NCBI RefSeq assembly: GCF_003334815.1
Contig: NZ_QOWO01000008.1
Reading direction: 5' to 3' (one strand)
Source: Escherichia coli
Lineage (GTDB): Bacteria > Pseudomonadota > Gammaproteobacteria > Enterobacterales > Enterobacteriaceae
DNA length: 64,000 nucleotides
The notes under the pieces are model-generated. The model was not told the origin of the DNA. It worked only from the letters and a program-made list of their open reading frames with translations, and ran no database searches. A program made the position numbers and the translations under genes. Shown piece after piece: positions 35,669 through 37,093 of the stretch. Numbering within the stretch: the stretch's first letter is position 1; every line of letters begins with the position of its first letter.

Positions 35669-37093
35669 CTACGCAAGCTTTGGAAAGGTAGCAACTTTAT
35701 CGCGCTGCTGGCTTTCCGCGCTTCGCGGAACTATCTGCTTTAGGTCGCTAATGAAGCACTCCTGCCAGTGGTTAATATCGTTTTTCACGATAACGTCCAG
35801 CATTTCTGCATGACGGGAAATACGTTCCGCCAGCGACATAGTCAATGCACGATCCAGCGCAGCTGCAACTTCGTCACGATCGTAGGGGTTAACAATTAAC
35901 GCCGACGTTAACTCGTTTGCCGCTCCCGCAAATTGCGAAAGAACAAGAACGCCCGGATTGGCTGGGTCCTGAGCAGCAACATACTCTTTTGCTACCAGGT
36001 TCATCCCGTCACGCAGTGGCGTCACTAAGCCCACGTCAGAGTAGCGGAATATTTTCATCAGTAATTTACGGTCAAAATGCTGATTCAAATAATAAAGCGG
36101 CGTCCAGCCTAATTGCCCGTATTTACCATTAATTCGTCCAGCTTCATTTTCGAGCTGATGACGAATATCCTGATAGGCTTGCACATCACCACGCGACGTT
36201 GGTGCAATCTGGGTATAACGAATTTTACCATGATGCTGCGGATATTTTTCCAGCAACGCTTCATAGGCGAGAAAACGCTCTGGCAAACCTTTGGAATAAT
36301 CCAGCCGTTCGACAGAAAAGATATTTTGTACGTTTTTCAGTTCCGCTTTAAGTTGCGCCAGTTTTGGCGGCAGTGGCCCGGCAGCCTGTTTGGCTATTTC
36401 TTTCGGTTCAATGCCGATCGGGTAGACTTCTGTTCGAAATGCTTTGCCCCAGGCTGTATGGCTTTTTGCGCTACGTGTCGTGACGCGGGTCAGGTTAGAA
36501 AGACAATCCAGGAACGCCAGACGATCGTTTTCTGTCTGGAAACCCAGCAAATCATAATCACAAAGCTGTTCAAGCAAGGTGTCATATGTCGGCAGCGCGT
36601 TGAAGATTTCCGGTGTCGGGAAAGGAATATGCAGAAAGAAACCAATGCGATTATTCACTCCCCGTTTGCGTAATTCATGCGCAAATGGCAACAGGTGATA
36701 ATCGTGGATCCAGATAATGTCATCGTCTTGCAACAGCGGCAGTAATTTATCTGCCAGCAACGCATTTACGCGTAGATAGCCGTCCCAGGCAGGACGCTGA
36801 AATTGCACCAGATCGAGCCGATAATGAAAAGCGGGCCAGAGAACGGCATTGGAGAATTGGTTGTAGTATTCGTCAAGGTCCTGTTCGCTGAGGTTAAAAG
36901 AGGCCCACGTAATGTTACCTTTTTTCACCTTTTTTAGCGGCTGATCCTCATTCCCTGTTTCACCACTCCAGCCAAACCACAGTCCGCCTGCGGCTTTCAG
37001 TGCCCCCAGTATGCCAACGGCAAGGCCACCGGCACTGGCGGCGTGCTCGTCTGGTGGTGCAATCCGGTTAGATACTACGACTAAACGACTCAT
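35669..37093 (-). CDS. otsA: Trehalose-6-phosphate synthase OtsA
   Basis: 474 aa from [14 protein letters not shown]. Confidence 0.95.

Follow-up and report, generated by a model that had tools for sequence, protein, structure and literature searches.

Translation of otsA across its 26-nt overlap with otsB in Escherichia coli: probably de novo initiation rather than tight coupling

Does an overlap of 26 nt between otsB and otsA, the genes of the trehalose-6-phosphate phosphatase and synthase, mean that the second is translated by the ribosomes of the first? The question arises from the window analyzed here, a stretch of 64,000 nt covering the Escherichia coli chromosome from znuB to yedD, whose preliminary description read this overlap and several shorter ones as signs of tightly coupled translation. 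Annotation was moved onto the window from one RefSeq strain, several RefSeq strains being 100% identical to it over positions 35000–39000. The overlap itself exists as described: direct reading, translation and the RefSeq annotation place the otsB stop codon inside otsA at exactly the same coordinates (Table 1). Both reading frames translate cleanly on the same, minus, strand. OtsA is identical to PDB 2wtx/1uqt over residues 1-474, and OtsB matches the Pfam family Trehalose_PPase (E = 5e-57) as well as PDB 6upb. The shared nucleotides are read in otsB as its 3' end, with the codons ..Y E S F S R S I stop, and in otsA as codons 1-9, M S R L V V V S N. The TAA of otsB lies 3' of the otsA ATG with a frame offset of 2, as in a co-directional overlapping operon pair.

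The overlap is an already known and ordinary feature. The locus is that of the otsBA operon of E. coli K-12 (b1897–b1896), from which the junction shows no differences, and the distance of −26 between b1897 and b1896 is given, along with most other pairs of the window, in Supplementary Table S2 of Huber et al. 2023 (PMC10666635). The junction sequence is also 100% identical to that of BL21(DE3), the same overlap appears in the RefSeq annotation of divergent E. coli strains, and the junction is found at 95% identity or more in 5418 of 5426 complete E. coli genomes. A literature search retrieved no paper that discusses or tests either the coupling or the overlap of otsB and otsA.

Table 1. The otsB/otsA junction and the other overlapping gene pairs of the window (positions are those of the window)
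Feature	Position	Strand	Description
otsB, trehalose-6-phosphate phosphatase	37068..37868	-	266 aa; GTG start, strong Shine-Dalgarno sequence (GAAGGAGGA)
otsA, trehalose-6-phosphate synthase	35669..37093	-	474 aa; ATG start
otsB/otsA shared region	37068..37093	-	26 nt, different frames; RefSeq annotation identical
otsB stop codon TAA	37068..37070	-	last base of OtsA Ser8 (TCT) and first two bases of Asn9 (AAY)
otsA start codon ATG	37091..37093	-	direct reading
otsA Shine-Dalgarno AGGAG	37102..37106	-	within otsB coding sequence, 8 nt 5' of ATG
In-frame codons upstream of otsA start	37100..37102 (GTG), 37097..37099 (ATG)	-	0-2 nt after Shine-Dalgarno
yecD/yecE	7652..7655	+	ATGA, 4 nt; coordinates
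cmoA/cmoB	9699..9702	+	ATGA, 4 nt; coordinates
flhA/flhE	19229	-	TAATG, 1 nt; absent from preliminary description
flhB/flhA	21300..21307	-	8 nt; coordinates
motA/motB	32509..32512	-	ATGA, 4 nt; coordinates
uvrY/uvrC	50184..50187	-	GTGA, 4 nt; GTG start of uvrC
yecU/yecF	51299..51312	+	14 nt; absent from preliminary description
tcyL/tcyN	53292..53295	-	ATGA, 4 nt; coordinates
fliS/fliT	61409	+	TGATG, 1 nt; coordinates

We infer, for the balance between de novo initiation and re-initiation in vivo, that otsA is translated mainly de novo from its own ribosome binding site (RBS), a reading to which we give a probability of about 0.7. Under this reading, otsB and otsA would make up a bicistronic operon, with the RBS of otsA (GGAG, 8 nt, AUG) embedded in the unconserved C-terminal tail of otsB. 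Ribosomes would start otsA de novo at its accessible Shine-Dalgarno (SD) sequence and AUG, those translating otsB would continue out of frame to a UAA made by the conserved Ser8–Asn9 codons of OtsA, and ribosomes that have just left otsB would add only a small contribution by re-initiation at this distance.

The experimental data that speak most directly to this reading come from INRI-seq, a retapamulin profiling of synthetic fragments extending from −30 to +153 in the PURE (purified) translation system. Fragments of otsA, which carry only 30 nt of upstream sequence and allow no translation of otsB, gave peaks of 604, 399, 577, 382 and 441 CPM, among the strongest in the region, in an assay that is in vitro, uses denatured short fragments and yields peak heights that also depend on template abundance. 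The otsA template was less abundant than average, with a value of 89.5 where the reported median is 125 reads per million. For the downstream genes of the short overlaps, the peaks were 0 CPM (yecE, flhE, tcyN and fliT), 6–10 (motB), 17–31 (uvrC), 23–45 (cmoB) and 36–62 (flhA). Strong initiation at otsA and weak initiation at these genes is the contrast expected if the latter depend on coupling whereas otsA can do without it. The otsA SD, spaced 7–8 nt from the start, pairs with the anti-SD with an energy of -6.9 kcal/mol. This pairing places otsA among the stronger of the overlapped set by a small margin, and in SD strength and predicted accessibility it stands only modestly above the −4 pairs.

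Among the ways in which translation of otsA could depend on that of otsB, termination–reinitiation keeps some plausibility but is unlikely. Ribosomes ending otsB at the UAA would move back 23 nt and be captured by the SD and AUG of otsA, which would tie the output of the two enzymes. Adhin and van Duin reportedly proposed, in 1990, a bidirectional movement of ribosomes after termination for phage RNA, which would speak for such a return. The two genes belong to one pathway and lie adjacent in one operon, the conserved SD could capture a sliding ribosome, and a strong SD such as that of otsA might help a post-termination ribosome to slide back to the AUG. Moreover, OtsB and OtsA are predicted to form a complex, and the median distance from otsB to otsA is −1 over 115 prokaryotic pairs (PMC10666635 Tables S4/S5). 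Distance tells against it. In measurements over d = −25 to +25, the coefficient of re-initiation declines linearly once d drops below −10 and reaches roughly zero at −25 (Tian and Salis 2015, PMC4538824; reviewed in PMC12548453), a law derived from synthetic reporters with a deliberately weak downstream RBS; the same authors advise overlaps of at least 25 nt to prevent re-initiation. Their out-of-phase synthetic overlaps (d = −11 to −25) have the geometry of otsB/otsA, whose d is −26 by their definition, and for such a geometry they predict de novo initiation with negligible re-initiation, although they worked with engineered reporters and otsBA is a natural pair whose conservation spans a bacterial family. 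Likewise, otsB/otsA shares with the termination–reinitiation class of Huber et al. the co-directional out-of-frame overlap within an operon and a downstream SD located in the upstream gene. It differs from that class in its distance, −26 falling outside the range of about −8 to +6 (PMC10666635), and in its strong autonomous initiation site, the class being marked by little autonomous downstream initiation whereas otsA reaches 382–604 CPM on isolated fragments. In addition, four lineages use a distance of −4, so that −26 is not required. With re-initiation measured at about zero at d = −25 and a strong INRI-seq start of its own at otsA, the tight coupling first read from this overlap is doubtful for this particular pair.

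Coupling could also operate by unfolding, a general mechanism (PMC12548453) in which an mRNA structure masking the otsA RBS would be opened by ribosomes reaching the end of otsB. These ribosomes necessarily cross the whole otsA initiation region, but no stable structure sequestering the SD or AUG of otsA is predicted there. The region −80..+60 around the start has a predicted minimum free energy of −27.9 kcal/mol, no better than shuffled sequences (mean −29.3 kcal/mol; z = +0.40), and its predicted centroid is almost unpaired. The stretch 5' of the SD is A-rich, and positions −15..+3 have a mean predicted unpaired probability of 0.47, close to that of controls. The isolated fragment initiates strongly as well, although INRI-seq fragments are heat-denatured and short. 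Together these points make unfolding a distinctly improbable explanation. Consensus scans for an internal promoter or terminator near the otsB/otsA junction stayed at chance level.

If otsA is started mainly de novo, one may ask why the overlap is kept. Species-representative genomes were scanned once with OtsA, which gave 80 loci (73–98% identity) in Enterobacteriaceae, Mixta and Pantoea, 79 of them usable. The distance is exactly −26 in 74 of the 79 species-level genomes, from Escherichia to Mixta (a count that includes one locus checked by hand), and −4 (ATGA), with otsB in the other frame, in four; the last locus, from a metagenome bin, is without otsB upstream of otsA. In this Buttiauxella bin (L053:2400-2500) a tRNA-like sequence stands 5' of otsA in place of otsB, and the case is probably an assembly join, not a true loss of otsB. 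A length of 26 nt alone is not beyond chance, given that about 21 codons pass in a random frame until a stop is met; as judged from the aligned loci, its conservation in 74 of 79 is.

This conservation can be followed codon by codon. The TAA of otsB is always built from the Ser8 (TCT) and Asn9 (AAY) codons of OtsA, and its loss would extend otsB by 35 codons, up to a TGA at nt 132 of otsA. Ser8 is TCT in all 74 of the −26 genomes and TCG or TCA in two of the four −4 genomes (Fisher p = 0.002, a value without phylogeny correction). Nearly all variation within the overlap falls at third codon positions of otsA, to which a Ser/Gly exchange at residue 2 is added, and the otsB tail 5' of the SD shows variation at every codon position. 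We also considered selection for dual coding on the OtsB tail as the main cause of the low synonymous variation in otsA codons 2–8. This was rejected: Leu4 retains its rare codon TTA in each of the four lineages whose otsB leaves the stretch unread, and among these codons only Ser8 TCT tracks the otsB stop.

Pfam Trehalose_PPase spans residues 18-231 of the 266 of OtsB, leaving the last ~35 residues outside the domain, and a distant solved homologue aligns to residue 234 at most. An indel of 5 nt, located in the otsB tail ~30 nt 5' of the otsA ATG, separates −26 genomes (Mixta) from −4 genomes (Pantoea-like), as seen between L081/L082 and L083/L085 at locus positions ~2465-2475; one of the −4 genomes is labelled Enterobacter cancerogenus M004. 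Since a single indel swaps the two distances, the otsB tail tolerates frameshifts. Whichever shifted frame is used, the codons of otsA offer a stop: the UGA of AUGAGU at −4 or the UAA of UCUAAY at −26. These comparisons indicate that the otsB tail is a weakly constrained extension, which ends at the stop that conserved otsA codons present to the frame in which it reaches them.

An alternative is that the −26 geometry is a selected device, in which an otsB stop about 23 nt beyond the otsA AUG would prevent re-initiation and ribosomes terminating otsB would block the otsA start for a short time. It would then be the strong RBS of otsA that fixes OtsA output, which would be largely independent of, or even damped by, otsB translation; the stop available in each shifted frame would, under the same alternative, make indels in the otsB tail harmless. 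The comparative data show no sign, over 79 loci, of selection on overlap length itself, and we hold little belief in such a device. The overlap persists because OtsA is constrained and otsB needs a stop. With de novo initiation at otsA as the preferred reading, the geometry would be ancestral to Enterobacteriaceae and would have lasted mainly through the strong conservation of the OtsA N-terminus and the need of otsB for the stop found there. The pair can serve, with modest value, as an example of an overlap that persists without selection on the overlap itself.

All of this supposes that the otsA start is correctly placed. All 79 relatives have the annotated ATG. The SD preceding it has G at -12, -11 and -9 in 76 of 77 unique sequences, and its GGAG core, 8 nt before the ATG, is nearly invariant. 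The next in-frame ATG, GTG or TTG downstream is codon 56, so no downstream start could remove the overlap; starting there would also delete the N-terminal strand of OtsA, whose first and second codon positions do not vary among relatives. The upstream alternatives, an ATG at −6 (33 of 79 relatives) and a GTG at −9 (3 of 79), would lengthen the overlap. The view that the overlaps constrain the choice of start codon holds, and at otsA no nearby in-frame start would abolish the overlap. Initiation profiling, proposed in the preliminary description as a check together with N-terminal proteomics, agrees in vitro, an INRI-seq peak at the annotated otsA start being called in 5 of 5 replicates, and is silent in vivo. 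Ribo-RET in growing cells (Meydan values copied into the INRI-seq table) gives 0 for both otsA and otsB, presumably because this RpoS-dependent operon is off in growing cells, and the TRAINSPOTTER N-terminomics tables contain flhA and lack otsA, cmoB, motB, uvrC, tcyN, yecE and fliT. That the overlap is an annotation artefact, the true start lying at another codon so that the overlap would be different or absent, is very hard to credit: the two in-frame codons just upstream and the 69 CPM seen at −6 in one of five replicates, which was not called as a peak, point that way, but both codons lengthen the overlap, sit almost against the SD and are unconserved, a start at codon 56 would cost OtsA its conserved strand, and the annotated ATG is both invariant and confirmed in all replicates in vitro.

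The window also contains shorter overlaps. The seven of 1–8 nt listed alongside otsB/otsA at the outset (yecD/yecE, cmoA/cmoB, flhB/flhA, motA/motB, uvrY/uvrC, tcyL/tcyN and fliS/fliT) are all present, and flhA/flhE and yecU/yecF are to be added. Overlaps occur in 10 of 47 co-directional neighbor pairs of the window, a frequency that is ordinary for E. coli, in which 707 of 2,987 unidirectional pairs (24%) lie between −8 and +6 (PMC10666635). The stop and start codons are within this range in the seven pairs and in flhA/flhE. Short start/stop overlaps (ATGA, TAATG/TGATG, NTGNNTGA) belong to the termination–reinitiation class (Huber et al. 2019, 2023), which the seven pairs fit by geometry; the pairs tested by these authors were hyfH-hyfI, ydbH-ynbE and menD-menH, and our literature search found no published coupling test for any overlapping pair of the window. 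Regarding pairs at −1, −4 and −8 as tightly coupled would be a reasonable inference at the level of the class (PMC10666635, PMC12548453). The overlaps of 1–8 nt fit the re-initiation class and the 26-nt overlap with its own strong RBS probably does not, the lesson being that an overlap alone does not imply coupling. Beyond annotation hygiene, the otsB/otsA overlap is of little import. The functional linkage claimed for the overlapping pairs stands for otsB/otsA, cmoA/cmoB, motA/motB, flhB/flhA, tcyL/tcyN and fliS/fliT and does not obviously extend to uvrY/uvrC, which joins a response regulator to an excision nuclease; yecD/yecE is without known function. The start of flhA is backed by Ribo-RET (in BL21) and by INRI-seq.

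Several observations were made in passing on other start sites of the window. For yecF, the Ribo-RET data reproduced in the INRI-seq supplement show an in vivo peak of 204.6 at the start. At ~33404 (-), an out-of-frame ATG located 8 nt 5' of the motA GTG start (33396) gave 124 CPM in three INRI-seq replicates and is a possible competing or regulatory initiation site. At the flhD start (34454..34463, -), INRI-seq Table S3 reports in five replicates an in-frame GTG 9 nt upstream of the annotated ATG; this GTG (34463) is also the start chosen by the mechanical list of open reading frames, and FlhD may have two N-termini. In the neighboring interval, K-12 MG1655 carries an IS1 (insA5/insB5) between flhD and uspC, whereas the strain of the window has no insertion sequence there (34455..35233) and is therefore not MG1655. 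Within araG (39036..40550, -), a strong out-of-frame ATG at +124 (~40427) reached 458 CPM in two INRI-seq replicates. The araG gene is intact in the window, but the annotation of strain 300709 gives it as frameshifted; apart from this, the compared stretches of that strain are near-identical to the window. For yecR (43703..43714, +), RefSeq makes the unusual call of a CTG start at 43712 despite an open in-frame ATG at 43703.

Searches against Rfam returned the MicL sRNA inside cutC (14698..15005, -; 382 bits), C0465 between tar and cheW (28996..29073, +) and two ES036 matches near threshold (10720..10762, +, and 57484..57525, +). They also returned a cluster of three tRNAs at 47299..47598 (-), annotated in RefSeq as tRNA-Leu/Cys/Gly, which we take to be leuZ-cysT-glyW.
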